Positions 12,467-54,310 are shown, counted from the stretch's first letter. The stretch is DNA of 64,000 nucleotides from an uncultured Fibrobacteraceae bacterium (GCA_964549735.1 CAZJWO010000002.1:27358-91357), one strand, 5' to 3'. A program made the numbers and translations. Notes: generated by a model not told the origin, from the letters alone.

Positions 12467-12473
12467 CCCCGGA

Positions 12474-21956: not shown

Positions 21957-21996
21957 CGGCGACGGGCGCGATCAAGCGACCGACCGCTGTCTGAGG

Positions 21997-27600: not shown

Positions 27601-27804
27601 GCTCGCGGTCTGGAACCTCCCTTCGATCGTACCCGGGCCGCCCAGGAGAAAGCTCGTGTCTGGAGGTGCTTTCGCGAAGCCGACTGGCCGGCCACGCAGA
27701 TCATCGCCGGCATGGCTCGAGAGCGCGAGAGACGGCTGGCGCGCTTCGACGGTCGCCAGGCCCAGGCCGAGCATGATCAATAACGACGACGTGAAACGAT
27801 ACAT
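24685..27804 (-). CDS. Large secreted protein (1039 aa) with C-terminal T9SS-type / FlgD-Ig-like sorting domain; function unknown
   Basis: Signal peptide MYRFTSSLLIMLGLGLATVEA. C-terminus NFPNPFNPSTTIRLTLPQSGEVGLKVFNLRGELVRTL...HEIPWDGTDDRGRAAASGVYFHELRAAGQTLVGKMVLVR. Confidence 0.7.
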   Translation of the reverse strand: MYRFTSSLLIMLGLGLATVEARQPSLALSSHAGDDLRGRPVGFAKAPPDTSFLLGGPGTIEGRFQTASGTPAWHGWTGVDFTANAAHHWSVTDDPALVCGGQRSLWLGRRFPAGSPWPGPGYGNDWRQAVVFAHTVADPLTASTVRWRLAICYDSEPGYDFSYLEYRQGGAWVVLAEFDGSGTAQFDETFVYAPASYGGPSGDRIELRVRFRSDGIFSDEDGMAPTLRGALQLDDIVVWVDGELIETEDFEAIEPDQPGENSTFGNWVVDLPGVGDFAALYIALQDLDPCVANFSPQVAFIDDGVVVPGTGGTTGWTWTYGPGGYVVNHSGGLLGGYDRLYNGVISPPLVVPESVDGLILAYDVYQHTVIDFSGSTTPTFDTWSVRSVDTGDPADLASAPWVSTGLLYFSSEPTYKRQRFDITPYLAPGRTHVQVALSARQSPSLIGADSTPAPYFDNVAVLGFPFRGPAISARAIHLFQDSFPASGTLDFVELGANSIRLDMASNISPPSHGGNTPGDSIAVDIAVIRAGFQLAGPPRLHFALKTNPLFDEVRDLSDPVLQGVTFAGGVVSGHVEGLPTYNAQGSLVPNRWNFDLPDAHFFFPGDILHYYIEAQDIFGDDSSSVGTTRLPADLEHFGDFDRLFGFDRNFTVRGLPTLRSAEPGDQPGVLWWDNSDKPWSQHFPADGGQDEWLYALAQLGYRPGVDVDLYRTLAAREQMGNSLGGRAAAPQLAGYEVLLVTFGDRREASTGTGRMLGVGDGANPADDIGLLTAWFALGSKKALLTGDNLAYELHQTHGAALVFRQDYLGVTYLASNLRPLIDNQSSPLVRPLAGNGVLDDSHAWIVYGGCRRLNTFDAVAPWGTAERLAGFTGPGGTDDPYPYAAAVRNYRADDDATIVYLPYDFMFIHQQAGGGGNGPVATRALVLQDILASFGQAGGSIPTGVAPEAVLAATNFPNPFNPSTTIRLTLPQSGEVGLKVFNLRGELVRTLVAGRLAAGLHEIPWDGTDDRGRAAASGVYFHELRAAGQTLVGKMVLVR

Positions 27805-27837
27805 GGCGAACCTTTCGCCTGGCGAGATTCCGCCCGG

Positions 27838-27893
27838 TAGAAAAACAGGAGTTCCGATTCCGCAGCCACCGACACCTTAATAGACGGAACTCC
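27838..27893 (-). terminator. Stem-loop GGAGTTCCG...CGGAACTCC followed by UGUUUUUCU on the minus-strand transcript, downstream of the S8 peptidase gene. A second small UUCG-tetraloop hairpin (AGGATTA-ttcg-TAATCC) lies just 5' of it.
   Basis: 9-bp perfect stem with a U-tract on the coding (minus) strand. It sits only ~35 nt upstream of the next gene start, so it could alternatively be a 5'-UTR element. Confidence 0.4.
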
Positions 27894-27979
27894 TAATGGG
27901 ATTACGAATAATCCTATTGACTGACACCGCGCTTCGTATTGATCCCTCGGTTTCGCCGAGGGCCACGGTCAGGGCGCGC

Positions 27980-30454: not shown

Positions 30455-30492
30455 GACGGAACACTCCCGGGTCTAGAGGCGGCGACGGGCCC

Positions 30493-30524
30493 GGGACCAT
30501 GGTCCAGGGCCCGTCGGTTGCGGT
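30493..30524. repeat. 32-bp near-perfect palindrome GACGGGCCCGGGACCATGGTCCAGGGCCCGTC between the metalloprotease-like and S8 genes
   Basis: Only two symmetric mismatches. Lies 29 nt after one stop and ~70 nt before the next start. No U-tract follows on the minus strand. Confidence 0.5.
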
Positions 30525-30552
30525 CGGTCGGAGCGCCTCGGGGCGCCGCCGC

Positions 30553-33500
30553 CTACCGGGCGAGGATCATCTTGCGGGTCGCCGTCTGGCTGCCCGCTTG
30601 CAGGCGGGCCAGATAGGCGCCCGAGGAGACGGCGCGGCCTGCGTTGTCGCGGCCGTCCCAGACCAGCGAACGTTCGCCGGCCGGCAGATCTCCGGCGAAG
30701 AGCGAACGCACCAGCCGGCCCTGCAGGTCGAGGATGTCGACCTTCGCCTGCCCGGGCTCGGCCAGGCTGAAGGACAAGGTCGTCAACGGATTGAACGGGT
30801 TCGGCGCGACCGAGCGCAGCGCGAAGGCGTGCGGCGTGTCGCCGACCGCGGTCTGGGGATCGACGACGGTCAAGGTCACCGGCACGACGTCCGCCGACGA
30901 ATCGGCGTTGCTGACGATGACCACGTACGCGGTGTAGTCGCCGGGCGTCAGGCCCGCGCTGTCGAAGCTCAGCTCGATGATCTGGCTCTGGCCTTGCCCG
31001 AGCGCGGCGGAGTCCGGCGCGATCGCCAGCCAGTCGACCGTCTCGTAGACCCAGAACGGCGCCTCGCTCTGGCCGGTGTGGAGGCCGTCGGTGCTGCCGA
31101 CGCGCAGCAGGCAGTTCTGCGACGCGGGGCCGCCCAGGACGAGCGACTGGGAGCCGTCGTTCGGCGTCGACGCGAGCAGGGTCTGCCAGCTGCCGCCGCC
31201 GTTGCGGCTCAGCTCGATCTTGACCTCGCTCAGCAGCGTGGCGTTCCACTGCACCAGGGTCGGCAGCTGGGCCGCCAGTACCTCTCCGCCGTTGGGCGCG
31301 ATGACGCCGACCTCCGGCTGCGCGACGCCGCAGCAGTCGACGTCGGCCCAGATCAGCCAGTTGCCGGCGAAGCCGTAACCGGCGACCACGTCCTGCCAGC
31401 CGGCGCCCCACTGGTTGTAGTTGACGCAGGTCGCCGGGGAGGAGTCGACCGGGATGCCCACCGGGCCGGCGGCGTTCGTGAACTCGAAGATCAGGAAGTA
31501 CTCGCTGCCCATGTCCTGGCAGGCGAAGTCGCAGGGGATCTCGATGTCGTAGTAGCCGTTGGACGGGATGCCCGAGACGGTGATCGGCGCCGAAGAAGCG
31601 AGGATGGTCCCCGGCCCTGTGCACGGTTCGCCGGCAGCGGCCAGGTGCGCGCGCACCTGCGGCGCCGAGGTCGTCTGCAGGTAGAGCACCATGTGCACGG
31701 CCCGCACGTTGAAGCCGGGGTTGCAGCCGCACGTGTAGTCCGCGGGGTCGATGCGCGTCGCGTAGGATTCGTTGCCCTCCCACCAGCTGCCGTAGTAGCC
31801 CTGGATCCCGGCCAGGTTGTTGTTGCCGAAGAGGCAGTCGCCGTCGTAGCGCATGGCGCCCTGCAGTTCAGCGGTCGACAGATCGCGGCCCAGAAGCTCG
31901 GGCAGCGTCTTGTCGACGCCGGCATGGCCGGGCTGGCCCAGCCCCGCGGCACGCTGCGCCTTGGCGACCGGCGCCTGGGTCATGACGTAGGCCGTGAAAT
32001 CGAGGATCGACCCCGCCTCGCCGCTGTTGGTGACGGTCAGATAGTCCACGTCGGTCTGGTTCGGCTCCAGCGACGGCGCGAAGGAGGCGCTGCTGAGCTG
32101 GACCGCCGGCTCGGGCTGCGGCGCGACCTTGCTGAGGGTCAGCGACCAGGTCTTGTTGTCGCCGGTGATGGCGGCGTTCGACATCACGATGCCGACGCGC
32201 TCGATCTGGGCCAGCGGCACGCTGAGCTGCACATCGGCGTCGTTGGTCGCGTTCAGGCCGACCGTCTCCAGCAGGCCGGTGCCGTCCCGCTTCTTGATGA
32301 CGGCGACCAGGCCCAGCGTGGCGGTGTCGTCGCCGTCGAACTGCACGCGCAGATGGCCGGGTTCGCCGGCCGTGAAGCCGATGCAATGGAAGTTGCGGGC
32401 CGAAAGGTGGTTCATGGTGCCGCTACTGTTGTACGGATAGCTGTTGACCGTCGTCGCCGAGCTCGTGGGATAGGACGCGGCCTCGCTGTAGCCGATACCG
32501 GGGATCGACCGCGCACCGCTCGCGTAGTTCCAGGCGGCGTACTGCGGGAAGCCCTGCGCGATCGACGAGCCATAGGCCTGCAGAATGACGTTGTAGGACA
32601 CGAGGACGGCCTGGCCCGTGTTGGTGGAGCGATGGGTCCAGAAGTCGACGATGATCTGGTTGGTGAAGGTCTCGCTCATCCAGAACTGCCAGATGCAGTC
32701 ATCGTAGGAGCCCGTGCCGCCCTGGTCGAGCGAGGACTGCGGATGGCTGATGCCGCTGCCGGAGCTGATGTAGTTGTAGTAGTCGTTGGTCGCGTCGAAG
32801 ACGATGTCCTCCATCCAGGTGGCGTCGACCTCGACCCAGCCGCCCTCGCTCCACAGCGAGGTGGCGCGCTGGGAGGCGTGCTTGAACTCGTGCGCGCAGG
32901 TGACCTTGGCCGCGCCGAGCTGGTTGCCGTCGGGATCGGTGTTCGGCGGGAAGCCGATGAAGTTCCGGTGCAGCACGATGCGGGTCCGCGTACCGGTCAC
33001 CACGGTGGTGTAGCCGTAAGCCGACATGTTCTCGAAGGAGATCTCGTAGTACGGGTTCAGCGGCGGCGCGGTGAACCCCATGTTGGTGATCTCCACCAGC
33101 CAGGAATAATCGAGGTACTCGGCGCACCGCTCGACGAAGTCCGGAATTCCATTGGCCGGATTGACATCCGTCGTCGGCACGGCGTGGGTGCCGGTCGTCT
33201 CGTACGTGAGCCGGAACCTGCCGGACGGGCTGATGTAGGTCGCCCTGCTCTCGCCGAGTTTCGGCGCCAGGTAGAGCTCGATGGTCTCGATGGTCCGCCG
33301 GTCGAGGTCGGCGCGGTCGCCTTCGAACGCGGCGATGAGCCCGGTTGCCGATTTGATCGGTGTCACGTCGTCGGGCCGGAATTCCGCCGGCAGATTATCG
33401 ATGTCGAAGACGTAATAGAACTTGTAGAGCAGCGCCTGCTCGGCATCGATCTTGCCCTCGGCCAGGGCCTCTTCGATGCGCGAGAACTGCGGCGTCGATG

Positions 33501-33564
33501 CGTGGGCGACGGCCGCGAAGAGCAGCAGAGCTGCGGCGACGGCCAGCATGAACGAACGGAACAT
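30553..33564 (-). CDS. Large secreted protein (~1003 aa) with HExxH zinc-metallopeptidase motif and C-terminal T9SS-type / FlgD-Ig-like domain
   Basis: Start at MFRSFMLAVAAALLLFAAVAHAS (AGGAGG RBS). HEFKH at VTCAHEFKHASQ. C-terminus APNPFNPLTTLSFSL...LVWDGRDNAGRAVSSGAYLARL...TRKMILAR. The 46 codons upstream in track ORF 30553..33702 are discarded. Confidence 0.7.
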   Translation of the reverse strand: MFRSFMLAVAAALLLFAAVAHASTPQFSRIEEALAEGKIDAEQALLYKFYYVFDIDNLPAEFRPDDVTPIKSATGLIAAFEGDRADLDRRTIETIELYLAPKLGESRATYISPSGRFRLTYETTGTHAVPTTDVNPANGIPDFVERCAEYLDYSWLVEITNMGFTAPPLNPYYEISFENMSAYGYTTVVTGTRTRIVLHRNFIGFPPNTDPDGNQLGAAKVTCAHEFKHASQRATSLWSEGGWVEVDATWMEDIVFDATNDYYNYISSGSGISHPQSSLDQGGTGSYDDCIWQFWMSETFTNQIIVDFWTHRSTNTGQAVLVSYNVILQAYGSSIAQGFPQYAAWNYASGARSIPGIGYSEAASYPTSSATTVNSYPYNSSGTMNHLSARNFHCIGFTAGEPGHLRVQFDGDDTATLGLVAVIKKRDGTGLLETVGLNATNDADVQLSVPLAQIERVGIVMSNAAITGDNKTWSLTLSKVAPQPEPAVQLSSASFAPSLEPNQTDVDYLTVTNSGEAGSILDFTAYVMTQAPVAKAQRAAGLGQPGHAGVDKTLPELLGRDLSTAELQGAMRYDGDCLFGNNNLAGIQGYYGSWWEGNESYATRIDPADYTCGCNPGFNVRAVHMVLYLQTTSAPQVRAHLAAAGEPCTGPGTILASSAPITVSGIPSNGYYDIEIPCDFACQDMGSEYFLIFEFTNAAGPVGIPVDSSPATCVNYNQWGAGWQDVVAGYGFAGNWLIWADVDCCGVAQPEVGVIAPNGGEVLAAQLPTLVQWNATLLSEVKIELSRNGGGSWQTLLASTPNDGSQSLVLGGPASQNCLLRVGSTDGLHTGQSEAPFWVYETVDWLAIAPDSAALGQGQSQIIELSFDSAGLTPGDYTAYVVIVSNADSSADVVPVTLTVVDPQTAVGDTPHAFALRSVAPNPFNPLTTLSFSLAEPGQAKVDILDLQGRLVRSLFAGDLPAGERSLVWDGRDNAGRAVSSGAYLARLQAGSQTATRKMILAR

Positions 33565-33758
33565 GAGATCCTCCTGAAGTTGGAAACCGGTCGCGGAGCC
33601 TCGACGAGCAACGGAACCGGGCCCCGGACCGACCCGCGGCGTTACGACGAGCCTCACTAAGATACCACGTTTTTCTTTCAAATTTATCACAAACCTACCC
33701 AAAAAGACGCGATGTCACGCCTTAATCGATATTGAATATCATCAGACGGGTGGATTCG

Positions 33759-38893: not shown

Positions 38894-38976
38894 TGCGGTC
38901 GCAACGATCCGATAGTCCCGTCGAACAACTGGCCTCATGCGCACGCATGGCCGGCCGCCAATAGAAGGAGAATCCG

Positions 38977-39909
38977 ATGAATGGCTCGCTACGATCCGGC
39001 AAGGCGACGACGATGCTAACGGTGCTCGTCTTCGCGGCCCTCTCGCTCGGCACGCAGGCCCTGGCCGAGACCTACCTCTGCCCCGTCATCAACGACGTCT
39101 ACATCGACCAGGGCCGCCCGGACGACACCCAGGGCCACCGCACGCGGGTCCTCGTGTCGTGGCACAGCACGAACCTGGCGGCCCGCGGCCTCTGGCGATT
39201 CGACATCCCGCCGGCGATCGCCGCGGCGCAGATCGTCAGCGCCGTCATGCACGTCTCGCGCAACTCGACCGGCGGCGCCGGGACGGCGATCGACGTCGAC
39301 GTCTTCGCGTTGAACGCCCCCTTCGACGAGGCGACCGACACCTGGAACTCCCTGGCCGGCGGCAGCTTCGACACGAGCGTGGTCGCCAGCGGGACCCTGC
39401 CCGCCTGGGCGTGCCCGCCTCCCTGCACCGCCGCGATCGACCTGACCAGCCTGCTGCAGGGCAACCTGGACAAGGTGCGCGACCACGGCATCCTGATGAT
39501 GGTCCAGGACGAGGGCACCGGCGCGAACCGCAACCAGAACTTCGCCACCAAGGAGGACGTCCCGCCGTCGACGGGCGCCTACCTGGAGATCGTCGTCGCG
39601 AGCGAAGCGGATGCCGCGCCGTCCGCGCCGCTGGCGACCCTCTACCCGAACGCCCCCAACCCGTTCAATCCGCGCACGACCATCGCCTTCACGGTCGTCT
39701 CGCCGCAAGCCGTCGACTTGCGGATCTGCGATCTGGCGGGGCGCGTGGTGCGCGTATTGCGGCGAGAGAACGTCGCGGCGGGCCGGCATGAAGTCACCTG
39801 GGACGGCACGAACGCTGCGGGACTCGCCGCTCCGTCCGGAGCATATCTCGTGATTCTGACCCCGGACGCCGGCGAGCGCCGCGTCGTGAAGGCGACGTTG
39901 AGCCGCTAG
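38977..39909 (+). CDS. Secreted DNRLRE-like domain protein with C-terminal T9SS-type / FlgD-Ig-like domain
   Basis: Signal peptide. Pattern VYIDQGRPDDT...RVLVSWHS...LWRFDIP...IVSAVMHV...DVFALNAPFDEATDTWNS...NRNQNFATKE...AYLEIVV resembles the DNRLRE domain. C-terminus YPNAPNPFNPRTTIAFT...VTWDGTNAAGLAAPSGAYLVIL. Confidence 0.5.
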   Translation: MNGSLRSGKATTMLTVLVFAALSLGTQALAETYLCPVINDVYIDQGRPDDTQGHRTRVLVSWHSTNLAARGLWRFDIPPAIAAAQIVSAVMHVSRNSTGGAGTAIDVDVFALNAPFDEATDTWNSLAGGSFDTSVVASGTLPAWACPPPCTAAIDLTSLLQGNLDKVRDHGILMMVQDEGTGANRNQNFATKEDVPPSTGAYLEIVVASEADAAPSAPLATLYPNAPNPFNPRTTIAFTVVSPQAVDLRICDLAGRVVRVLRRENVAAGRHEVTWDGTNAAGLAAPSGAYLVILTPDAGERRVVKATLSR

Positions 39910-43136: not shown

Positions 43137-44447
43137 ATGCCCGGAACATCGCGGATCCTCTGGCCGCTGGCCAGCCTTCTCGTGGCCCTCGGCTGCCTGC
43201 TGTCCTGCCGCGGAACGCCGGCGGCCGTGAACATCGAGCACGCCAACGCGCAGTTCGCCTGGAGCCTCTACGGCGAGGTCGCGGGCGACCCCGGCAACCT
43301 GTTCTTCTCGCCCTTCAGCGTCTCCAGCGCCCTCGGCATGACGCTGCTGGGGGCTCGCGGCGAGACGCAACAGCAGATGCAGCAGGTGCTGTTCGGCGGC
43401 GGCGACCTGCACGAGCAGCTCGGCGCCTTGACGCGACAGCTCGTCGAGGCCGGCCGACCCGCCGCACAGGGGACTGGCGAGGGCGGCGGCTCGGCAGCCG
43501 GCGAACCCTTCGCGCCGGCGGGTGGCCAGCCGGGCGGGCGCGCGGCCGCGACGCAGGCCTACGAGCTGACCGTCGCCAACGCCCTCTGGCTTCAGGATGG
43601 CTTCACGCTGCGCGCGGGATTCCTGGGCGCGACGGCGGATCACTATGGAGCGCAGCCCTTCGCGGTCGATTTCCGGGCGCAGCCGGACGCCGCGCGCCAG
43701 CGCGTCAACACGTGGGTCGCGGACGAGACCCGGCAGAAGATCCGGGACCTGCTCGCCCCCGGCAGCGTCACGCCGGCCACGCGCCTGGTGCTGGCCAACG
43801 CCATCTATTTCAAGAGCGCCTGGCAGACGCCCTTCCAGGCCGCCGCCACCCAGCCGGCGCCATTCCATCTGGCGAACGGAGAGGTCGTCGAGGCGCCGCT
43901 GATGCGGCAGACCGGTCGATTCGCCTATCGGGAGATCGACGGCGCGCAGGTGCTGCGGCTGCCGTACAAGGGCGGCGAGCTGGCCATGCTCGTGGTCCTG
44001 CCGCGGACGGCCGCCGGCCTGGGCGAGATGGAGTCTTCGCTGACCGCCGCCGCGCTGCTGGACCTGGTGGCCGGCGCCGGCGAAACCGTCCGCCGGGTCG
44101 AGGTGCACCTGCCACGCTTCCGCGTCGAGAAGCTGCTGAACCTCGGTCCGCCGCTAGCCGCTCTGGGCATGCCCGCGGCGTTCTCGCCCGAGCAAGCGGA
44201 CTTCTCGGGCATGACCGGCGGCAAGGATCTGTGTATCGACGCGGTCGTGCACAAGGCCTTCGTCGAGGTCGACGAGGAGGGGACCGAGGCGGCGGCGGCC
44301 ACGGCCGTCACGATGATGGCGACGTCGATCGCGATGGATCCGGAGGAGCCGGTCGTCTTCAAGGCCGATCGGCCGTTCCTGTTCTGCATCGTGCACCAGC
44401 CCAGCAACTCGCTGCTGTTCCTGGGCCGCATGGTCGATCCCGCTTAA
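43137..44447 (+). CDS. Serpin (serine-protease inhibitor) lipoprotein/secreted
   Basis: Hinge EEGTEAAAATAV and C-terminal FKADRPFLFCIVHQPSNSLLFLGRMVDP are canonical serpin signatures. ANAIYFKSAWQTPF is the breach/shutter region. N-terminal signal with LGC. Confidence 0.85.
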   Translation: MPGTSRILWPLASLLVALGCLLSCRGTPAAVNIEHANAQFAWSLYGEVAGDPGNLFFSPFSVSSALGMTLLGARGETQQQMQQVLFGGGDLHEQLGALTRQLVEAGRPAAQGTGEGGGSAAGEPFAPAGGQPGGRAAATQAYELTVANALWLQDGFTLRAGFLGATADHYGAQPFAVDFRAQPDAARQRVNTWVADETRQKIRDLLAPGSVTPATRLVLANAIYFKSAWQTPFQAAATQPAPFHLANGEVVEAPLMRQTGRFAYREIDGAQVLRLPYKGGELAMLVVLPRTAAGLGEMESSLTAAALLDLVAGAGETVRRVEVHLPRFRVEKLLNLGPPLAALGMPAAFSPEQADFSGMTGGKDLCIDAVVHKAFVEVDEEGTEAAAATAVTMMATSIAMDPEEPVVFKADRPFLFCIVHQPSNSLLFLGRMVDPA

Positions 44448-44470
44448 CGCGGCGGGTTGACGCCGGCCGA

Positions 44471-44493
44471 CGAGGTCGGCCGGCTTCATCATC
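44471..44493. terminator. Hairpin GCCGGCCGAC-gag-GTCGGCCGGC between the convergent serpin gene and the NifX-like gene
   Basis: Perfect 10-bp stem followed by TTCATCAT on the plus strand. Confidence 0.45.
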
Positions 44494-44516
44494 GGGCGCC
44501 GTCGTGAGCGGCGTCA

Positions 44517-44852
44517 GTGGTCGCAAGCATTCACGCCGTTCGCCAGCGTGCCGGCGAGGAACGCCGCCGCCAGCTCTTCCGGCGTCTCGACCGGAGCGCC
44601 AACGACGACTCGCACCCCGTGCCCCGCGAACAGCTCTTGGGCGCGCCGGCCCATGCCGCCGGCGATGACGACAGCCGCTCCTCGCTCCGCGAGCCACGCC
44701 GGCAACAGACCCGGTTGATGGGCCGGCGCGGCGACGTCTTGCCGTGCGGTGATCATCCCGGTGGCATCGTCGACGTCGACCATCGCGAAGCGCTCGCAAT
44801 GGCCGAAATGCTGAGCCAGGCGTCCGCTGGCGAGGGGAATCGCGATCCTCAT
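44517..44852 (-). CDS. NifX/NifB-like dinitrogenase FeMo-cofactor-binding-domain protein (PF02579-type), copy 1
   Basis: MRIAIPLASGRLAQHFGHCERFAMVDVD...VIAGGMGRRAQELFAGHGVRVV. ~111 aa. Start overlaps the stop of the next gene. Confidence 0.65.
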
Positions 44853-45766
44853 GAATGAGACCTCCACAGGTTGTTCTTCGGGGCTTCGCGATCTGCCGGC
44901 AACGCGGCGATCCGCGTCCAGCTCTCGCGTATGTCTTCGGCGCACGCGGCGCCGATCTCGACGGCCGCCCTCGCGCGCATCTGCGCCCGCGTGACGGCGT
45001 TGTCGTAGCGGATGCGACCTGCGACGAACGCGCCGGCGCGTCGCGCCAGGTCCTCGATCCGTTCCGTCAGACGCGGATTGAGGTTCCACTTGTTCACGCA
45101 AACTGCGGCGGGCAGACGGAAATGGCGCGTCAGGGCCAGTACCCGCGCGAGATCGTGCTCCCCGGAAACCGTCGGTTCGGTGACGATCACCGCCAGCGTG
45201 GCCCCGGTCACCGCCGCGATGACGGGGCAGCCGATCCCGGGTGGACCGTCGATGATGATCAGGGAACGCCGCTCGGCAGCGGCGATCTCGCGCGCTTGTT
45301 GACGGACCGTGGCGACCAGTTTGCCCGAGTTCTCGGCGCCGGCCCTGAGCCTGGCGTGCACCAGCGGCCCACAGCGCGTGACCGAGGTCATCCAGACGCC
45401 GCAAAGGCGCTCGGAGAACGCGATCGCCCGCTGCGGACAGAACCGGACGCAGACGCCACAGCCCTCGCAAGCCGCCGGATCGACGGCGAAGCGGGCCGCC
45501 CCCGAGGGGTCGGGGATCACGGCGCCGAAGCGGCAATGCGTCGCGCAAGTGCCGCAGCCGACGCATATCCGCGGGCGGATCGCCGCTTCGCGCCCGCTAT
45601 AGAAGTCGTGGCATTCCTCGCCGCTGGGCGACAGGACCAGATGCAGATCGGCCGCATCGACGTCGCAGTCGGCGATGACCGGCCGGTCGGCCAGAACGGC
45701 GAACGACGCCGTCAAGCTGGTCTTGCCGGTGCCCCCCTTGCCGCTGATGACGACGATCTCTTTCAC
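44849..45766 (-). CDS. MinD/ParA-superfamily P-loop ATPase with inserted 2x[4Fe-4S] ferredoxin domain (COG1149-like), copy 1
   Basis: P-loop ISGKGGTGKTS. CVGCGTCATHC and CEGCGVCVRFCP ferredoxin motifs. Confidence 0.8.
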   Translation of the reverse strand: MKEIVVISGKGGTGKTSLTASFAVLADRPVIADCDVDAADLHLVLSPSGEECHDFYSGREAAIRPRICVGCGTCATHCRFGAVIPDPSGAARFAVDPAACEGCGVCVRFCPQRAIAFSERLCGVWMTSVTRCGPLVHARLRAGAENSGKLVATVRQQAREIAAAERRSLIIIDGPPGIGCPVIAAVTGATLAVIVTEPTVSGEHDLARVLALTRHFRLPAAVCVNKWNLNPRLTERIEDLARRAGAFVAGRIRYDNAVTRAQMRARAAVEIGAACAEDIRESWTRIAALPADREAPKNNLWRSHS

Positions 45767-45773
45767 GGCGCCG

Positions 45774-46619
45774 CTATCCCGTCCTCTGCAGCTTCTGCAT
45801 GATCCGGTCGCGCAGACGCGCGAAGAGCTCCGCGTAGCGCGGCAGAGCCTCGACGATCAGGGCCCCGCGCGAGTAGGCCTCGGCGATGCCGCGATCGTCG
45901 GGTATGTCGAGCAGCACCGGCAGGGCCTGTTCGCGACAGTAGGCGTGCACCCGGTCATCGCCCTGCCCGACGCGATTGACGACGACGCTGCAGTCGATGC
46001 CGAGTTCGCGCACGACCGGCACGGCCAGGGCGAGATCGTGCAGCCCGAACGGCGTCGGTTCGGCGACCAGCACGACGTGGTCGGCGCCGCGCAGGGTCGC
46101 CACGACCGTGCACGCCGTGCCCGGAGGAGCGTCCAGGATCGCGGGCCGCGTCCGATCGATGCGATCCTTGACCGCCCGGATCAGCGGCGGCGCCGAGGCG
46201 ACGCCCACATCCAGCCGGCCGTGTATCAGCGAGATATCGCCCGACCTGAACGACTCGACGACGCCGATGCGTCGGCTGCTCTCGCGGATCGCGCCGCGAG
46301 GACAGACCTTCGCGCAGCCGCCACAGCCGTGGCAGAGCTCGGGAAACACCAGCGGCGACGTTCCGAAGGAAACGATCGCGTGAAAGGCGCAGAAGCGTCC
46401 GCACTCGCCGCAACCGTCGCAGAGCGAAGCGTCGACGTCGGGCACGGGCACGAAGACCTCCGCGCAGGCCACCGGCGCGCCGGCGAGGAACAGATGCGCG
46501 TTGGGTTCCTCGACGTCGCAGTCCAGAAGCTGGACGCCATCGCCGATGACTCGGGCCAGGTTCGTCGCGACCGTCGTCTTGCCGGTCCCCCCCTTGCCGG
46601 AGGCTATCGCAAGGATCAT
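45774..46619 (-). CDS. MinD/ParA-superfamily P-loop ATPase with ferredoxin domain, copy 2
   Basis: P-loop ASGKGGTGKTT. CDGCGECGRFC and CHGCGGCAKVCP. Confidence 0.8.
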   Translation of the reverse strand: MILAIASGKGGTGKTTVATNLARVIGDGVQLLDCDVEEPNAHLFLAGAPVACAEVFVPVPDVDASLCDGCGECGRFCAFHAIVSFGTSPLVFPELCHGCGGCAKVCPRGAIRESSRRIGVVESFRSGDISLIHGRLDVGVASAPPLIRAVKDRIDRTRPAILDAPPGTACTVVATLRGADHVVLVAEPTPFGLHDLALAVPVVRELGIDCSVVVNRVGQGDDRVHAYCREQALPVLLDIPDDRGIAEAYSRGALIVEALPRYAELFARLRDRIMQKLQRTG

Positions 46620-46680
46620 GCGCGTTCCTCATGATCACCGCGCAGCGCCGTGAAGAGGCGGGCCTGGCTGGCGGGAGCGG

Positions 46681-47046
46681 TCATACCCAGTGGTCCTCGA
46701 CGTCCGCCGCGGCGGCCTCGGTCAACTCGCCCGCACGGTACAGGGCGAGGGCGGCCGCCACCGTCGGCGCCTCCGTCACGAAGACCCTGATTCCGGCTGC
46801 CGCGAGCACGCGGAAGGCCTTCGGACCGCAGTGGCCGGTCACGACGGCCTGCACACCTAGGCGCGCCACGGTCTGCGCCGCCTGGATGCCGGCGCCCTGC
46901 GCCGCCTCGAGGCTCTGACGATTGTCGACCGTGGTGAACGTGTCCTGGTCCAGGTCATAGACGAGGAATCCGGCGGCGCGGCCGAACCTGGGGTCCAGCG
47001 GCGCTTGCAGATCCCGTCCCGCGGTCGTGAGCGCGATCGTCATCAT
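46681..47046 (-). CDS. NifX/NifB-like FeMo-cofactor-binding-domain protein, copy 2
   Basis: MTIALTTAGRDLQAPLDPRFGRAAGFLVYDLD...VVTGHCGPKAFRVLAAAGIRVF. Confidence 0.65.
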   Translation of the reverse strand: MMTIALTTAGRDLQAPLDPRFGRAAGFLVYDLDQDTFTTVDNRQSLEAAQGAGIQAAQTVARLGVQAVVTGHCGPKAFRVLAAAGIRVFVTEAPTVAAALALYRAGELTEAAAADVEDHWV

Positions 47047-47128
47047 GCTGCCCTTCCGGACGCCTCGGCGCGACGCGTCCAACCGTCGCCTGTCGCGCGT
47101 CGTGAAGCGGCGCGCTTGCGGCGGCCGT

Positions 47129-47506
47129 CTATGGCGCGGCATCGCCGCGGTCGATTTCGCGCAGGCGTTCCTGCATGGCGGCCAGTTCGGCCTGCAACGC
47201 GGCGATCTGGCGCTGGAGGCTCTGCATCTGGTGAGCGTTGGCAGGCAGAGGTTCGGGCGCGGCCGTTGCGACGGGCGCGCCGTGCTGGCCGAATCGGAAC
47301 CAACCGGGCAATCCCTTGGCCTGGAACATGTTCCGCCAGCCGCGGCCACCGCCGAGACCACACCACCAACCGCCACGACCCCTGCCTGGACCGCGGCCGG
47401 CCGGCGCGCGCATGCTGCCGGGCGTGTCTCCACCCGCACAGAAGCCCGCCCCGCGTCCGGTCAACGCTCCTTGTCCGAGCGGACCCGTCCGATCTCCGCC
47501 TGGCAT
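47129..47506 (-). CDS. Small Gly/Arg-rich protein with C-terminal coiled coil, DUF5320-like
   Basis: MPGGDRTGPLGQGALTGRGAGFCAGG...GRGRGGWWCGLGGGRGWRNMF...QMQSLQRQIAALQAELAAMQERLREI. 125 aa. This family is a typical neighbour of NifX-like / MinD-ferredoxin genes. Confidence 0.5.
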   Translation of the reverse strand: MPGGDRTGPLGQGALTGRGAGFCAGGDTPGSMRAPAGRGPGRGRGGWWCGLGGGRGWRNMFQAKGLPGWFRFGQHGAPVATAAPEPLPANAHQMQSLQRQIAALQAELAAMQERLREIDRGDAAP

Positions 47507-47880
47507 CGCCGCACCTTCCTTTCCCTGTTTCGCCGGCGCCGGCACCGGCAGCAACCCGGCATGATGAATTCCTCGTCCTGCAGACGGTCGTCGAGCCAGG
47601 CTTGCCTGACCGCGCGCAGATCGCCGGCCACGAACGGGATGACCTCGATCCCGTAAGCCGCGACCAATTCCTGCAGAGGTCGCGAGATCGCGCCGCAGAC
47701 CAGCGTGCCGACTTCCCATTCGACGAGCCGCAGGACCTTCTGGACCGGCAGATCCTCCGCCAGCGTCGCGGCGACCTCGCTGACGACCCGGCGGGCGACG
47801 ACCTCGACGAGCAGCAGCCGGTGCGTGGTGTCGAAGACCGGCGCGATTCGGTCCTGCCAGCATGCGAAGGCCACCCTCAT
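47461..47880 (-). CDS. NifX/NifB-like FeMo-cofactor-binding-domain protein, copy 3, with a Cys/Arg-rich C-terminal tail
   Basis: Start at MRVAFACWQDRIAPVFDTTHRLLLVEVV...LVCGAISRPLQELVAAYGIEVI. The tail MPGCCRCRRRRNRERK overlaps the start of the DUF5320-like gene by 46 nt, so the stop is uncertain. Confidence 0.5.
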   Translation of the reverse strand: MRVAFACWQDRIAPVFDTTHRLLLVEVVARRVVSEVAATLAEDLPVQKVLRLVEWEVGTLVCGAISRPLQELVAAYGIEVIPFVAGDLRAVRQAWLDDRLQDEEFIMPGCCRCRRRRNRERKVRRCQAEIGRVRSDKER

Positions 47881-47928
47881 CGCGTCCCGCCTCGCTTCGG
47901 TGCCGGGCCCGACGCCCTCCGTGGACAT

Positions 47929-47944
47929 TGCAACTGGCAGGCCA
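47929..47944 (-). promoter_or_regulatory. Sigma-54 (-24/-12) promoter TGGCCTG-CCAG-TTGCA, ~50 nt upstream of the third NifX-like gene
   Basis: Minus-strand sequence CTGGCCTGCCAGTTGCAA matches TGGCACG-N4-TTGCW with GG and GC spaced exactly 10 nt apart. A sigma-54 activator gene is adjacent. Confidence 0.6.
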
Positions 47945-48005
47945 GTGGAGAACGCAACGGCCGATTCTCCCGTTAGCCTCTGTAAATAAATAGAATAGAC
48001 GATCG

Positions 48006-48023
48006 GCCACGAAGCTTCTTGGC
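48006..48023. promoter_or_regulatory. 18-bp near-palindrome GCCACGAAGCTTCTTGGC, ~70 nt upstream of the sigma-54 promoter (candidate enhancer/UAS)
   Basis: One mismatch pair around a central AAGCTT. Its position is appropriate for a bacterial enhancer-binding-protein site. Confidence 0.35.
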
Positions 48024-48077
48024 GACCCAAGTGGTGCATTATAGCTACGATATCGCGGGGTTACTGACGCGGCAGCG

Positions 48078-49574
48078 CTACTCTACGGGTTCACGACGGG
48101 AGCGCCCATCCTGATCCGGCAGGACGATGCCCAGCTGCTTGAGGCGACGGTAGAGGGTGGTCTTGTGGATGCCGAGGTCCCGCGCGGCCGCCAGGCGATT
48201 GCCCTGATTACGCGCCAGCGCGGCGTGGATGACCTGCGTGTCGACGATATCGCGGACCTCGCGGGCCGTCCGCACGCCCTGGCGCCGGGCATCCACGCCG
48301 CGATCGGCCGTCAGCTCGACGGGCAGATGCGCGATCCCGATGAGCCCGTCTCCGCAGAGCACGAACGCCCGCTCGACCGCGTTGGCCAGCTCACGGATGT
48401 TTCCCGGCCAGTCATGGGCCATCAGCAGCGACAGGGCCTCTGGCGCTACGCCCGCCACGGCCTTGCCTTGCAGCCGATTGAAGCGGGCGATGAACTGATC
48501 GACGAGCAGGGGAATGTCCTCCTTGCGGCGGCGCAGCGGCGGCAATTCGATGCGCACGACGTTGACGCGATAGTAGAGGTCTTCACGGAAACGGCCGCGG
48601 CGCACCTGTTCGGCGAGGTCCTTGTTGGTCGCGACCACGACCCGCACGTCGGCGGTCTCGGTGCGGGTCGACCCCAGCGGTTCGAACGTCCTCTCCTGCA
48701 GCACGCGCAGGAGGCGCACCTGCAGGGCCGGACTCACCTCGCCGATCTCGTCGAGGAAGATCGTGCCGCCTCCCGCCAGGGCGAAACGGCCCGGCTTGTC
48801 GGCTTGCGCGCCGGTGAACGCGCCCGCCTTGTAGCCGAAGAGCTCGGACTCGAGCAGCGCATCGGGCAGGGCGCCGCAATTGACGGCGACGAAAGACCTG
48901 CTGCCGCGGGGACTCTGCTCATGGATGGTGCGGGCGATGAGTTCCTTGCCGGTTCCGGTTTCGCCGAGCACGAGCACCGTGCTCGGACTGGCCGCTATCG
49001 CGGGCAGGACCTCGAAGATGCGTTGCATGAGCGGACTGCGACTGGTCAGCTCGCCGATGCTGTGCCTGCCAGCCAGCTCGCGCCGGAGCGCCTCGACTTC
49101 GGCGAGATCGCGGAACGTCTCGACACCGCCGATGATGCGCCCCGCACCGTCGCGCAACACCGCGGTCGAGAGGCTGATCGGCCGATGGTTGCCCTCGGCG
49201 TCGACGATGTAGGCCGACTTGCCGATGATCGGCTTGCCGGTCTGCAGCGTCTGTTGCAGCGCGCAGTCGTCTCCGCACAGGCTGGAGCGGAAGACGTCGC
49301 AGCAGCGCCGGCCCAGAGCCTCCGCGCGGGGCACGCCGGTGATCTGTTCGGCGGCCCGATTGAAAGCGCTGATGCACCACTGGTGGTCTACGGTGAACAC
49401 GCCGTCCGAGATGCTCTCGAGGATGGTCTCCGTCGGGCTGAGGCGGACCGGCCGACGTGTCTGCTTGCGGGGATTCATCGACGGCTGCCTCCGGCGCACG
49501 CCGCTGGGAACGCCGCCCGGCGGCGTCCCGAGCGGGGCGTCTCGCGGTGGCGAAGATTGACGCTCCGCATCCAC
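48078..49574 (-). CDS. Sigma-54-dependent transcriptional activator with an N-terminal PAS sensory domain (no receiver) and C-terminal Fis-type HTH
   Basis: Walker A GETGTGKE, GAFTGA motif (KAGAFTGAQ), ESELFGY, LYYRVNVVRIELPPLRRR, and C-terminal LGIHKTTLYRRLKQLGI. Alternative start at MNPRKQ. Confidence 0.85.
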   Translation of the reverse strand: MDAERQSSPPRDAPLGTPPGGVPSGVRRRQPSMNPRKQTRRPVRLSPTETILESISDGVFTVDHQWCISAFNRAAEQITGVPRAEALGRRCCDVFRSSLCGDDCALQQTLQTGKPIIGKSAYIVDAEGNHRPISLSTAVLRDGAGRIIGGVETFRDLAEVEALRRELAGRHSIGELTSRSPLMQRIFEVLPAIAASPSTVLVLGETGTGKELIARTIHEQSPRGSRSFVAVNCGALPDALLESELFGYKAGAFTGAQADKPGRFALAGGGTIFLDEIGEVSPALQVRLLRVLQERTFEPLGSTRTETADVRVVVATNKDLAEQVRRGRFREDLYYRVNVVRIELPPLRRRKEDIPLLVDQFIARFNRLQGKAVAGVAPEALSLLMAHDWPGNIRELANAVERAFVLCGDGLIGIAHLPVELTADRGVDARRQGVRTAREVRDIVDTQVIHAALARNQGNRLAAARDLGIHKTTLYRRLKQLGIVLPDQDGRSRREPVE

Positions 49575-49666
49575 CCATCATGATAGGTGCAAGAACGCGA
49601 CGATCAAAGAAACGCCTGCAGGGCGGCGGCGGCCGCCCGCCGGCGGCGCGCCGGCAGGCGCTGGCG

Positions 49667-52600
49667 TCACCTGCTGCCGACCGTCAGCTCGAGATCGTCG
49701 GCGGATCGATCCGGCCGCGCCGCCTCCTGCGCCTGCGCCTCCGGCCGCCCGCGGTCCGCGGGCAGCCACCGGCGCAGCGCCTTGGCGACGGACCGCAAGG
49801 AGATCGGCTTGGCGATGTAGTCGTCCATGCCCCTGGCCAGGCACCGCTCGCGGTCGCCCTGCATGGCATGGGCTGTCATGGCGATGATCGGAATCCGTCG
49901 ATCGCGGACCCCGGATCGCGGATCGCGGATGGCGCGCGTCGCCGCCAGGCCGTCCATCTCCGGCATCTGGACATCCATGAGCACGAGATCGTAGGACTCG
50001 TTCTTCAGGGCTGCGACCGCGTCGGCGCCGTTGGCCACGACATCGGCGCGCAGGCCGAGCTTCCGCAGGATGCCTCGCGCCACCTGCTGATTGATGACGT
50101 TGTCCTCCGCCACGAGGATACGGGCCTCGCAGCCCGCGAACATCAGCGCCGGCTCGCGAACGGCTGCGATCTTCTCGGCGCGCGGCTGCGCGTCGGCGCC
50201 GATGTCGCCCGCGCCCAGCGCCTCGACCAGCGCCGCTGCGAGTTCGTCGCGGCGGACCGGCTTGGCCACCGACACGGCGAATCCGAGCCGCGCGGCGTCG
50301 CCGGCATCGCCGCCGCGCCCCAACGGCGCCAGGAGCACGAGCGGAAGCGCCGCCAGCCGGGAGTCGCTGCGGACGGCCTTCGCCAGCGCGAGTCCGTCCA
50401 TGCCGGTCATCTGCATGTCGACGAGGACGACCCGGAACGGATCCTCGGCGGAGGCGGCCTCGGCGAGCGCCGCGAGCGCGGCGAGGCCATCCGGCGCGAC
50501 GTCCGCGCGCACGTCCCAGGCGGACATGCAGGCGGTGAGGACTTCGCGGCTGGCCGCGTTGTCGTCGACGACCAGCGCGCGGACGCCCTTCAGGGCGGGA
50601 ACAGCTACCGGAACCGCGGCCGCGGCCGCCTCGGCCGGACAGCGGCCGAACGACATGGTGAACCAGAATTCGGCGCCCCGCCCCTCGTCGCTCTCGACAC
50701 CGATCTCACCGCCCATCAGTTCGACCAGTTCCTTGGAGATGGCGAGACCGAGTCCGGTGCCGCCGTAGCGTCGTGTCGTCGAGGCATCGATCTGGTTGAA
50801 TTTGACGAAGAGCCGATCCTGCCTGTCGCGAGGTATGCCGATACCCGTGTCGCGCACGGAGAAGCGCAACCGCACGTCCTGTTCGGACTCCCCAACGAGG
50901 GTGGCCCGCACGGCGACTTCGCCCGCGGGGGTGAACTTGATCGCATTGCCGGCCAGGTTCGTCAAGATCTGGCGCAGGCGTCCCGGATCGCCTCGCAGCC
51001 GGAGCGGCACCTTCGGTTCGACGTAGCAAGTCAGCTCGAGACCTTTCTCGTGCGCGCGGACGGCCAGGCTGGCCGCGAAATCCTCGAACATGCCGGCCAG
51101 ATCGAAATCGAGGTCTTCGATCTCGAGCCTGCGCGCTTCGATCTTGGAGAAATCCAGGATGTCGTTGATGAGTCCCAGCAGCACCTCGCCGCTCGCTTGC
51201 ACAGTCGCCGCGTAACGGTGCTGCTCCGGCGACAGCCCGGCGTCCAGCAACAGGCCCGTCATGCCGATGATCCCGTTCAACGGCGTGCGGATCTCGTGGC
51301 TCATGTTCGCCAGGAATTCGCTCTTGGCGATGTTGGCCATCTCGGCCTGGGCCGCCATGTCGCGAGCTTTGGCCATCGCGGACTCCAGCTCGCGATTGGC
51401 CACGCGGAGCTCCTGCGCCGAGCGCGCCACCGCCGCCTCCGCGTTCTTGCGCTCGGTGACGTCGCGCGCCACCGCATAGATGAAATCGCCGAGCGGATGC
51501 GATCGCCATTCGATCCAGCGGTAGGCGCCGTCCTGGCGTCGGTAACGGTTCTCGAAGCTCAAGACATCCTGGTGGGCGTCCAGCTTCGCCATCGCCGCCA
51601 ACGTGGTCTCGATGTCGTCCGGATGCACGAAATCGAGGTAGCGGCGGCCGACGAGGTCCGTCATCGCGTAACCGAGCACTTGCTGCCATCGCGGATTCAA
51701 GCGCACGAAACGGCCTTCCATGTCGGCGATGCAGAGCAGGTCGAGGCTGGAGCTGAAGTAGCGCTCCAGCTCCTCGCCCTTGGCCGCCAGGGCCCGATAG
51801 GCCTCGTTGCGCGTGATGGCCTGCGCGATGATCTCGGCGACGACCCGCAGCATGCGGACCTGGTCCTCCGGCCAGGTGCGGCGCGCGCGCACCGCGTCGA
51901 AGCCGAGGAAACCGAGCAGCCGGCCGTGATCCTGGCGCATCGGCAGGCAGATCAAGGAACGGATGCCCTGCGCCGATAGCTCCGCCTTCTCCGCGGCGGC
52001 TTCCGGCGGCAGCTCCTCGACGGCGGGGATCTGCAGCGCCGACGAGTCGAGGAACTGGGCGTTCAGCCAGGGCATCGCGGCGACCGGGAGGTTCTGTACC
52101 CGCTCGCGCTGCGGGGCGATGCCCGGCGCACACCACTCATGCGTGTTGTCCATCGTCGCCAGGTCCGTGGAGTATCGGAACAGATAGCTGCGGTCGGCCG
52201 CGAGCAGCTCGCCGAGCCTGCGCAACGCGCTATCGACGGCCTCGTCGTAGTCGCGGTCGGACAGCCGGACGAATCGCGATGAGATCTCGGCGACGGCGGT
52301 CTGGAATTCGAGCTGGAACTGCATGGCGCGCTCGGCGTGCCGGCGCGCGGAGATGTCCACGGCGGAACCGCGGTAACCCCGCAAGCCGCCAGCCTCGTCC
52401 AGCAACGGCACGCCGTTGGTGGCGACCACGACGACGCGGCCATCCTTCGCCAGCAGGGGGACCTCCAGATCCGAAATGCACTCACGCCTGGCGAACACGT
52501 CGAGCAGCGCCTGCTTGTACTCGGCGCGCTCGTCGGCCGGGAATTGATCGAAGAACGCCATGCGCCCGACGAGCTCCTGCGGCCGGTAGCCGAGGACCTG

Positions 52601-54310
52601 CTCCACGACCGGGCTCAAATAGGTGTACAGGCCCTTGGCGTCGACCTCGATGACGATGGTCCGGCTCTGCGTCGCGAGTTGGTCGTAGCGCTCCTGGCTG
52701 TCGCGCAGCTGCGCCTGCTGCGCGCAGATCTCCGCTTGCGCGTCGCGAAGCAAGACGTAGACGAAGCCCAGCAGCGACGCCAGGATCACGGCGCCCGCAG
52801 TGCCGCCAAGCACGAAGAGGCGGCTGAGCGACGCCTTTTCCGCCGTCAGGTCGCGGATGACGACCAGGCAGCCGGCGGCATCGGCGATGGAATCGGCAAG
52901 CGGCCGCGCCGTCGCGCGCCAGGTCCGGCCGTCGTGACGGATGTCGCGGCTCCGCGCGCTGGCGTTCTCATGCGCGCCCGCGACATGGTCGGCGACGCTC
53001 GTGAAGACGTCCGGCAGGCGGCCGAACGACGAGTAGACCACCACCGACGCCGGCAATCGATCCCAGTCGGCGTCGCGGTCCAGCCGCCGCATGCCGCGCT
53101 CCCAGGCTCGCCGGTCGAGATGCTGCTTGGGCAGCGTCAAGGCCAGCTCGATGCCGTAGCGCGTATGCAGCGAGCGCAAGGCGTCCTCTATCTCCTTGCC
53201 CAGCTCGACGAAACCGATCAGCTCGTCGTCGTCGCGAATGGGCACCGCCACCCGCAAGATCAGAGTGCCGAACGGTCCCGGCTCGATGCGGTAGGCCGGT
53301 TCTCGATCGCCGGCGACGCTGTTGGCGGCCACGAGACGGTCGCCGCCGGCGTCCTGGTTCGCGGCGAAGAGGCAGACCTGTTGCTCGCCGTCGCGGCCGC
53401 GGAAGCAGAGATGAGCGAGGTTGTGCGCGCGATGCAGCGATTCGAACATCGTGTGCGCGACGTTGCGCAGGTGCGGGATGTCGTGACGGCGCAGCGCGGC
53501 GCGAATGGCGGGGTCGACGGCCATGGACTGCAACGTCATGACCATCCCGGCCGCTTGGTTGTCGAGGTCGACGGCGAGCTCGCGGTGGATCTCGTCGACC
53601 GCTGCCGTACCGGATCGCACCAGCGCCTGCTGGTGCTGGCGCCACAGGAGGCCGCCGGCGCTCGCCGTCAACAGCGTGACCATCGCCGCCAGCGGCGGCA
53701 GCAGCCGCGTCAGGACGGCTCTGGGCGCTCCGTCGGCGCCGCGCGGACCGAACACCGCCGCCAGGGCGCCGATCGCCAGGATGAGGACCACACCGACCGG
53801 CAGGGCGGATTGGACGGCGACCTCCCGGCGCCAGACGGCGGCATCGACGTCCAGGCCCAGCATGGCGACCGCCGCGCCAGTCTCGGCGTCCAGCAGCGGC
53901 ACGAGCGCTGCGACCCGGTCGTCTCGTGCCTCGGCGACCGGACCCGTCCAGGTCGCGGGACTCGAATCGGCGAACTTGTAGACCGTGCCGTCGGAGCGGC
54001 GACCCAGGATATAGACGTCGCGGTAGCGGGAATCGATCGCGCGCACGGCCTGCAGGCGTTTCGCGAGCCGCTGGAAAGCGGGAACGTCGAGATCCGCCGG
54101 CGTGCCGGTCAGCGCCTCGATGTCCGCGACATCGATGTTCTGCGCGACCAGCCTCGCCTGCAGCAGCAGGTCGCCGCGCATCTGCCGATCGGCGCGCGCG
54201 GCCACCTTCCAGGCGAGCGACGCGCCCACGGCGATGGCCACCACCAGCAGGATGCCCATCCGCAGCGCGCGCGAAGGGACGCCCAGACGACCCGCCATCC
54301 GACGTATCAC
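49667..54310 (-). CDS. Multisensor hybrid histidine kinase (1547 aa): periplasmic/TM sensor, several PAS/GAF-like modules, HisKA, HATPase_c and two C-terminal receiver domains
   Basis: H-box [19 protein letters not shown]-box [22 protein letters not shown], and receivers [14 protein letters not shown]...[12 protein letters not shown] and [18 protein letters not shown]...[13 protein letters not shown]. Confidence 0.85.

Follow-up and report, generated by a model that had tools for sequence, protein, structure and literature searches.

A probable orange protein complex (orp) operon with a dedicated sigma-54 activator in an uncultured Fibrobacteraceae bacterium

The window analyzed here, a whole stretch of 64,000 nucleotides from an uncultured Fibrobacteraceae bacterium (GCA_964549735.1 CAZJWO010000002.1:27358-91357) with a uniform G+C content of ~70%, contains seven minus-strand genes at positions 44514-49478 that encode a PAS/AAA+/helix-turn-helix (HTH) sigma-54 activator, three proteins of the NifX-like PF02579 family, a DUF5320 protein and two MinD-ferredoxin ATPases. 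This region is in all probability, at roughly 0.82, an orp (orange protein complex, ORP) operon accompanied by its own sigma-54 activator, an orthologue of OrpR. The ORP/OrpR system is already known and has been studied since 2011, and the cluster is not an orphan; its seven genes could be named orpR and an orp operon in place of 'NifX-like' or 'hypothetical'. All of the genes described in a first-pass annotation were recovered on the minus strand by Pfam searches, and their presence together with an exact sigma-54 promoter confirms that observation. A literature search on COG1149/COG1433 returned nothing relevant.

The orp cluster of Desulfovibrio vulgaris Hildenborough consists of two operons encoding Orp3 and Orp4 (MinD-like Fe-S ATPases), Orp8 (orange protein family), Orp5 and MrpORP/Orp9, the last of these combining an Mrp P-loop and a 'Di-Nase' (PF02579) domain in one fusion protein (PMC6345978), with both operons driven by sigma-54, IHF and the cluster-encoded OrpR. 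In the window, the regulator gene (48078..49478, with an open reading frame (ORF) extending to 49574) is followed by six genes on the same strand. The first encodes a divergent PF02579 protein, NifX#3 (47461..47880), and is overlapped by 46 nt (47461-47506) in another frame by the start of the DUF5320 gene (47129..47506; PF17253, E = 8e-23). Next are NifX#2, a homologue of the orange protein (ORP/Orp8-type; 46681..47046; PF02579, E = 8e-24, 84 bits), and two Orp3/Orp4-type ATPases, a MinD-family protein with an inserted 2x[4Fe-4S] ferredoxin domain (45774..46619) and a second MinD-ferredoxin ATPase (44849..45766). The final gene encodes NifX#1 (44514..44852; PF02579, E = 2e-20, 73 bits), a free-standing protein homologous to the Di-Nase domain at the C terminus of MrpORP, and its start overlaps the preceding ATPase gene by 4 nt. 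No terminator-like sites were found in 44300-49800. A gene for a full-length bacterial serpin (PF00079, E = 6e-114; 43137-44447, plus strand) converges on the end of the operon.

Each ATPase carries a CbiA/ParA domain and two CxxCxxCxxxC motifs (Fer4 twice; Pfam), in agreement with their initial description as MinD-ferredoxin proteins, while scores against minD models (63 and 47 bits) fall far below cut-offs of ~200. The two proteins are 32% identical to each other with 47% positives, and a similarity of 41% has been reported for Orp3 and Orp4. The first ATPase is ~70% identical to proteins of Thermodesulfobacteriota, Sumerlaeota, Aminicenantes, Eisenbacteria, Planctomycetes and others, an unusually high degree of conservation between phyla that would be consistent with strong constraint or horizontal spread.

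The three NifX-like proteins, initially regarded as an unusual set of paralogues, represent three distinct and separately conserved subfamilies with fixed operon positions across phyla and are not recent paralogues. NifX#2 has its best Protein Data Bank (PDB) match in the Desulfovibrio gigas orange protein (2WFB; E = 7.9e-20 over 112 aligned residues), with which it shares a conserved PRFGRAAGF motif; in Desulfovibrio, the orange protein binds a Mo/Cu-sulfide cluster non-covalently. NifX#1 (112 aa) aligns with positions 265-365 of the 365-position NCBIfam model for MrpORP (NF041136; E = 2.2e-35, 122.6 bits against a full-model cut-off of 450) and carries the motifs HFGHCE, PAHQPG (P-x-H-x-PG) and a C-terminal CDH, all of which have been reported for the MrpORP Di-Nase domain (PMC6345978).

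In profile searches, NifX#1, NifX#2 and the DUF5320 protein matched PF02579 and PF17253 as had been anticipated, whereas NifX#3 scored 24.3 bits, under the PF02579 cut-off of 26.3. In an alignment of its subfamily, however, 22 of 22 sequences match PF02579, and the subfamily profile matches solved structures of this fold at ~3e-7; the fold assignment therefore holds. The subfamily is marked by an invariant Cys62-Gly63 and an invariant Pro108-Gly109, the latter within a near-invariant MPGC that is followed in nearly every member by a cationic tail rich in Cys, Arg and Gly. In the window protein this tail has 12 Arg and 4 Cys in 33 residues, a pI of 11.5 and no aromatic residues. What was first read as an unusual Cys/Arg tail is therefore a family trait and a conserved hallmark of the subfamily, and some relatives extend it by a Gly/Arg-rich segment and a zinc ribbon. 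As the first gene of the operon, NifX#3 occupies the position of Orp5/Dde_3197, a small [2Fe-2S] protein encoded by the first gene of the ATPase operon, and with its conserved Cys62 and Cys110 and further cysteines in the tail it is probably the candidate counterpart of that protein.

Related loci were sought by scanning 185,579 species genomes with the first MinD-ferredoxin ATPase, using as query a cluster representative (P0001) that differs from the window protein by one residue, and the seven window proteins were then mapped onto the loci by tblastn. The scan yielded 80 loci with 48-69% identity, spread over a very broad set of anaerobes, the best relatives being 68-69% identical. The two MinD genes are adjacent in 73 of the 80 loci, NifX2 and MinD in 49, MinD and NifX1 in 34, and the regulator and NifX3 in 17; DUF5320 directly precedes NifX2 in 30 of the 40 loci that have it. 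The order regulator > NifX3 > DUF5320 > NifX2 > MinD > MinD > NifX1 is kept across at least six phyla: it is complete in Syntrophaceae/Smithella, Planctomycetia, Hydrogenedentota and one unclassified bacterium, is interrupted by a contig end in Ignavibacteria, and lacks a single gene in Holophagales, Verrucomicrobiota and a Bacteriovoracaceae bin.

Many of these loci also contain inserted genes, most often one encoding Mrp/NBP35 (37/80 loci), usually just before NifX1 and resembling a split MrpORP. Radical SAM proteins (21 loci), FmdB-type zinc ribbons (13), CGGC proteins (10), DUF5320-N with a zinc ribbon (9), methyltransferases (8), ARMT1/DUF89 (6), the pyruvoyl arginine decarboxylase PvlArgDC (6), TrmO (6), ferritin (3) and FeoB (2, accompanied by FeoA in L010) make up the remainder, and a gene with a metallo-beta-lactamase fold was also seen among the insertions in related operons (L010:4430-11023, and others). 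The insertion of Mrp/NBP35, radical SAM, CGGC, ferritin and FeoAB points to iron and sulfur handling. None of the inserted genes is present in the window operon and no Mrp P-loop homologue was found in the 64 kb; the window therefore holds a minimal version of the system, and such a six-gene system without Mrp could simplify reconstitution.

Most probably, the six products together serve to hold or traffic Fe-S species or other anionic metal sulfides, and the products would be needed only under reducing, anoxic conditions. This assignment follows from the Fe-S motifs of the ATPases, the Mo/Cu-sulfide cluster of the orange protein, the Fe- and S-related insertions, and the finding that Orp3 and Orp4 are Fe-S proteins matured by MrpORP, which transfers clusters to them (PMC6345978). 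The idea of a redox-responsive system for metallocofactor handling, put forward in the first-pass annotation, gains support in that such roles have been shown or proposed for the homologous ORP/OrpR proteins (PMC8359166, PMC6345978). The same annotation held that the gene combination has no established function; the locus is instead an orp cluster with its cognate OrpR, although the literature describes the cellular role of the complex as 'still unclear' and a cell-division role has also been proposed (PMC8359166).

That proposal offers the strongest alternative, in which the cluster would be a MinD-like positioning or cell-division system with its ATPases at the membrane or cell pole and its metal clusters serving a regulatory purpose. 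Both ATPases belong to the MinD/ParA family, and in D. vulgaris Hildenborough cells lacking OrpR show morphological defects, Orp3 and Orp4 are reported to end in amphipathic helices of the MinD type, and MrpORP is polar (PMC8359166, PMC6345978). However, no minC, minE or other division genes are present in the window or among the genes inserted in the 80 related loci, where the recurrent partners are Fe-S-related instead, and the gene neighborhoods give a cell-division role no support. A function in division is improbable for this cluster, and even if it applied it would be compatible with a role in Fe-S trafficking.

Identification of the system as an orp cluster extends to its regulator. The activator ORF (48078-49574) contains a sigma-54 activation domain (Sigma54_activat, E = 7e-68), a PAS domain (PAS_4, E = 1e-11) and an HTH domain (HTH_8, E = 4e-10), together with a GAFTGA motif and a Walker A motif, giving the PAS, AAA+ sigma-54 interaction and Fis-type HTH architecture of OrpR-type proteins. 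Although the frame is open up to a GTG at 49574, the true start is probably the ATG at 49478, because alignments with homologues begin only at this position (near residue 33 of the long ORF) and the end of a sigma-70-like promoter is at 49580. This candidate promoter of the regulator gene (TTGATC-16-TATCAT, 49580..49607, minus strand) was located by consensus match, with two sigma-70-like sites found in the region against 0.1 expected; orpR of D. vulgaris Hildenborough is likewise sigma-70 dependent (PMC3897727). Immediately upstream of the regulator gene is one for a hybrid sensor kinase of 1547 aa (49667-54310, minus strand), whose domains are dCache_3, two PAS, GAF, HisKA, HATPase and two receivers.

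The redox sensor of OrpR is a [4Fe-4S] cluster in the PAS domain, for which C52, C61 and C65 are required, with a conserved D/E54 nearby (PMC8359166). The PAS domain of the window activator contains the motif CCDVFRSSLCGDDC, which reads C-x-D-x6-C-x3-C and has a spacing identical to that of C52/D54/C61/C65 in OrpR. Among related loci, C-x-[DE]-x6-C-x3-C was found in 20 of 24 PAS-domain matches, including every regulator directly upstream of a NifX#3-type gene whose PAS region is on the contig. In the 2021 OrpR paper this regulator 'seems to be restricted' to delta-Proteobacteria (PMC8359166); on the sequence evidence, OrpR-type regulators with the PAS triad occur in Acidobacteriota, Ignavibacteria, Planctomycetota, Verrucomicrobiota and Hydrogenedentota, a wider distribution.

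The sigma-54 promoter noted at 47929-47944 is supported, coordinates included. The sequence TGGCCTG-CCAG-TTGCA (TGGCCTGCCAGTTGCA; 47929..47944, minus strand) is an exact match to the pattern, with the -24 GG and -12 GC, and lies 48 nt upstream of the NifX#3 ATG at 47880. Matches to TGGC-N7-TTGCW number three in the 64 kb against 0.51 expected, a count that no shuffle reached, and a sigma-54 element is also present just upstream of the NifX3-type gene in ~20 related loci. The spacer between the regulator and NifX3 measures 140-211 bp in 16 loci, mostly 175-200 bp, and in most of these the promoter is 12-53 nt before the start codon. A second exact match, TGGC-N7-TTGCT at 21511-21526 (minus strand), lies between AbgT transporter and radical SAM genes in a stretch of lower G+C content (20856-21996) that on reading looked like a degraded gene, and is probably due to chance.

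Upstream of this promoter, two 16-bp sites probably form the conserved enhancer, as judged by conserved offset and alignment: site A, GTAGCGCTGCCGCGTC (48066..48081, minus strand), and site B, GTAGCTATAATGCACC (48033..48048, minus strand), which lies at a distance of 33 bp from site A and precedes the -24 element by ~100 bp. Relatives carry GTCGC-N6-GCGAC or GTAGC-N6-GCTAC, usually as two copies 31-34 bp apart. Measured from the end of the regulator stop codon, site A has an offset of -4 in the window and a GT[AC]GC-N6-GC[GT]AC site lies at the same offset in L003, L010, L011 and L015; site B is at +29/+30 in the window and these four loci as well as L009; and the -24 element is at +131 to +133 in the window and the same four. 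The geometry of L009 is near-identical (site A at -1, site B at +29, -24 element at +119), and the half-site columns (AGTnGC) are invariant in the six-locus alignment. The TAG stop codon of the regulator (48078-48081) lies inside the left half-site (GTAGC) of site A, as it does in L003, L010, L011 and L015, and the coding sequence and predicted binding site therefore constrain each other. Half-site type also covaries with the HTH recognition helix: HKTTL[FY]RR goes with GTAGC (window, L003 and L015) and HKSTL[FY]RK with GTCGC, the window helix being of the HKTTLYRR class. A predicted two-site enhancer that is conserved between loci and embeds the regulator stop codon in its first site is thereby defined.

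An upstream activating sequence had originally been placed at 48006-48023, where the first reading of the sequence recorded a palindrome. This palindrome, GCCAAGAAGCTTCGTGGC, is real, with overlapping 11-nt arms that are 91% complementary, and in principle it could be the binding site of the activator: it is statistically unusual for a spacer of 197 bp, precedes the promoter, and shares bases with a third and weaker match, GTCGCCAAGAAGCTTC (48011-48026, the two together spanning 48006..48026), that agrees with the degenerate family consensus at 9/10 positions. It has no positional counterpart in relatives, however, while the sites at -4 and +29 keep their geometry and half-sites across phyla, and the GTAGC half-sites that accompany the HKTTLYRR helix class are present in sites A and B and not in the palindrome. 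A role for it as the main enhancer is accordingly doubtful, and sites A and B are preferred. As an RNA hairpin or terminator the palindrome was rejected (z = -0.08).

Between the enhancer and promoter is a 19-bp A/T-rich tract, TCTATTCTATTTATTTACA (47981..47999, minus strand), which was read from the sequence of this 70% GC genome as a candidate DNA-bending or IHF region. IHF sites are found at the corresponding position in the orp promoters of D. vulgaris Hildenborough (PMC3897727), and a perfect WATCAANNNNTTR was read in the related locus L011. Since no WATCAA core was seen by eye in the window tract, an IHF role for it is put forward by analogy only.

A last alternative is that the locus is a nitrogenase accessory cluster, with carriers of the NifX/NafY type and NifH-like ATPases controlled by an activator resembling NifA; in its favor, PF02579 is the domain of NifX, NifB and NafY and the activator scores 352 bits against the NCBIfam NifA model, however this score is below the cut-off of 529 and reflects the common AAA+ core (the activator reaches no NCBIfam equivalog cut-off), its sensor is a PAS domain with the OrpR Cys triad and not a GAF domain, the ATPases match Fer4_NifH only below threshold (19 bits), the closest solved relatives of the PF02579 proteins are ORP, MTH1175, TM1816 and PH0822 and not NafY (NifX#2 has its nearest matches in ORP and MTH1175 and reaches NafY, 1P90, only at E = 0.33), no nifHDKENB were found among the ORFs scanned across the 64 kb, of which a few stretches were not scanned directly, and the same cluster recurs in many lineages, where the flanks that were examined showed no nif genes, all of which make a nif accessory role very unlikely. 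Non-diazotroph status of the host is no longer needed to explain the cluster.

Several points weigh against assignment of the locus to the ORP/OrpR system. Comparison with Desulfovibrio was made through the D. gigas ORP in the PDB and the NCBIfam MrpORP model, and no D. vulgaris locus was among those found in the scan. The missing Mrp homologue and the arrangement as one co-directional operon downstream of the regulator gene, where D. vulgaris Hildenborough has two divergent operons flanking it, both depart from the known cluster; the equations of NifX#3 with Orp5 and of DUF5320 with Orp7 are candidates only; and the unsettled function of the complex in the literature, noted above, adds to this. 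On the DNA side, the right half of site B is imperfect (8/10), and the degenerate enhancer motif is not enriched across the window (30 matches against 27 expected), and support for the enhancer therefore comes from position and conservation, not from statistics in the window. The intergenic region lacks the OrpR site described in the literature, GGGCGYRTTTTGCGCCC, which has one chance-level match elsewhere in the window, and the predicted sites differ from it in half-site and in having a 6-nt instead of a 5-nt center.

If redox regulation by the window activator follows the OrpR model, the regulator would be made from its own sigma-70-type promoter, as in D. vulgaris, and would be bound constitutively at the two 16-bp sites GT[AC]GC-N6-GC..C, which are placed at an interval of 33 bp and follow directly on its own gene. 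At low redox potential the PAS [4Fe-4S] cluster, held by the Cys triad and Asp, would be intact and the PAS domain would not inhibit the AAA+ domain, allowing ATP hydrolysis to open the sigma-54 promoter at 47929-47944 with the aid of bending at the A/T-rich tract. Transcription would then supply the six ORP-type products, namely the two ATPases, the orange protein, the MrpORP C-terminal domain, the Cys-rich PF02579 protein and DUF5320, until a rising potential degraded the [4Fe-4S] cluster and the operon shut off. Elsewhere in the window, a row of genes at 10183-14246 (minus strand) encodes a ScdA_N and hemerythrin protein (RIC-type, di-iron Fe-S repair), a nitroreductase-family protein and a DUF438-hemerythrin-PAS_10 protein, which suggests oxidative or nitrosative stress handling in this genome region.

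Other genes of the window lie apart from these functions. Several very large predicted proteins (830-1063 aa, one with a subtilase domain) and a CBM96 protein, encoded at 24685-33714 and 38965-39909, all end in a FlgD Ig-like domain, possibly a tag for secretion or sorting that they have in common. A small bacterial SET-domain protein (PF00856, E = 8.5e-15; 4162-4521, minus strand) is encoded next to a cyclase-family gene, and on its other side is a group of carrier-protein, asparagine-synthase and AMP-ligase genes.

The orp cluster of D. vulgaris Hildenborough (DVU2103-DVU2109) and Desulfovibrio alaskensis G20 shares with the window two MinD-like ATPases with 2x[4Fe-4S] domains, a PF02579 orange protein, an MrpORP-type PF02579 domain, a small Cys-rich first gene after the promoter, a sigma-54 promoter with an upstream palindromic enhancer (predicted in the window) and a bending region (candidate in the window), and a dedicated regulator encoded within the cluster. 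Besides its single operon, the window differs in having no MrpORP fusion, a feature of the D. vulgaris Hildenborough cluster whose Di-Nase half stands alone here with no Mrp/NBP35 P-loop domain, perhaps in having a DUF5320 gene, for which Orp7 is a candidate counterpart, and in a host that, on present evidence, falls outside the delta-Proteobacteria. OrpR (DVU2106) and the window activator have in common the PAS/AAA+/HTH architecture, the C-x-D-x6-C-x3-C motif of the PAS domain, a gene that adjoins the target operon and imperfect palindromic sites (predicted in the window) ~100 bp upstream of the -24/-12 element. They differ in the GAFTGA of the window protein, which is GAFTDA in D. vulgaris Hildenborough, and in their sites, with a GT[AC]GC half-site and 6-nt center in the window as opposed to GGGCG-YRTTT-TGCGCCC. 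The D. vulgaris Hildenborough sites overlap the sigma-70 promoter of the regulator, whereas the window sites are downstream of the regulator gene, over its stop codon, and an autoregulatory loop of the D. vulgaris Hildenborough type is therefore not expected. NifX#2 is homologous to the D. gigas orange protein (2WFB), of which the Mo/Cu-sulfide cluster is the D. gigas feature, and the fold family is also that of NifX, NafY and the NifB C-terminal domain, from which the window is set apart by a lack of nitrogenase context among the ORFs scanned.

A further comparison concerns IssA, the thioferrate iron-sulfur storage protein of Pyrococcus furiosus, which has a globular domain of the IPR003731/PF02579 family, as do the NifX proteins. 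Binding of anionic thioferrate has been proposed for the IssA tail, whose 70 residues include 15 Gly, 7 that are cationic and 14 that are aromatic, with a pI of 10.7. The window DUF5320 protein consists of a Gly/Arg/Trp-rich N-terminal segment of 75 residues (25 Gly, 10 Arg/Lys, 8 Trp/Phe; pI 11.9), a Pro-rich linker and a long C-terminal helix; the N-terminal segment contains the conserved motif MPGGDRTGP.G.GP.TGRGAG.CAG...GRGWRN...GLPGW with an invariant Cys23, and in the AlphaFold model only helix 90-122 is confident, residues 1-89 having pLDDT values of 43-57. NifX#3 is fused in-frame to the N-terminal half of DUF5320 in two related loci, L026:329-928 (PF02579 and PF17253) and L073:5984-6553 (read from translation only), and no fusion proteins were found among the best 120 of at least 2022 DUF5320 homologues. 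IssA has a single Cys in a cationic, disordered segment of Gly, Arg and aromatic residues, which may have its likeness in the NifX#3 tail and possibly in DUF5320 in trans. The IssA tail is in cis, long, and Pro-rich then Gly/Arg/aromatic, whereas that of NifX#3 is short and Cys/Arg-rich, and DUF5320 is encoded by a gene of its own and has a C-terminal helix, its likeness to IssA being compositional and drawn from the description of the IssA tail; the resemblance is best treated as a lead and not as demonstrated homology.

One speculative extension, which we consider unlikely though worth stating, is that DUF5320 and the NifX#3 tail are polycationic, disordered modules like the IssA tail, in trans and in cis respectively, that wrap anionic metal-sulfide chains on PF02579 domains while the ferredoxin-MinD ATPases load or unload them. 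The chains would consist of thioferrate or, as in the orange protein, of clusters of the thiomolybdate/Cu type. Were this so, the ORP complex would be an ATP-driven device for the storage and delivery of metal sulfides in many anaerobic phyla, switched on by OrpR only at low redox potential, and DUF5320 would gain a function, with its place before the orange-protein gene explained. The compositional parallel between DUF5320 and the IssA tail offers a lead, open to testing, as to what the ORP complex does.

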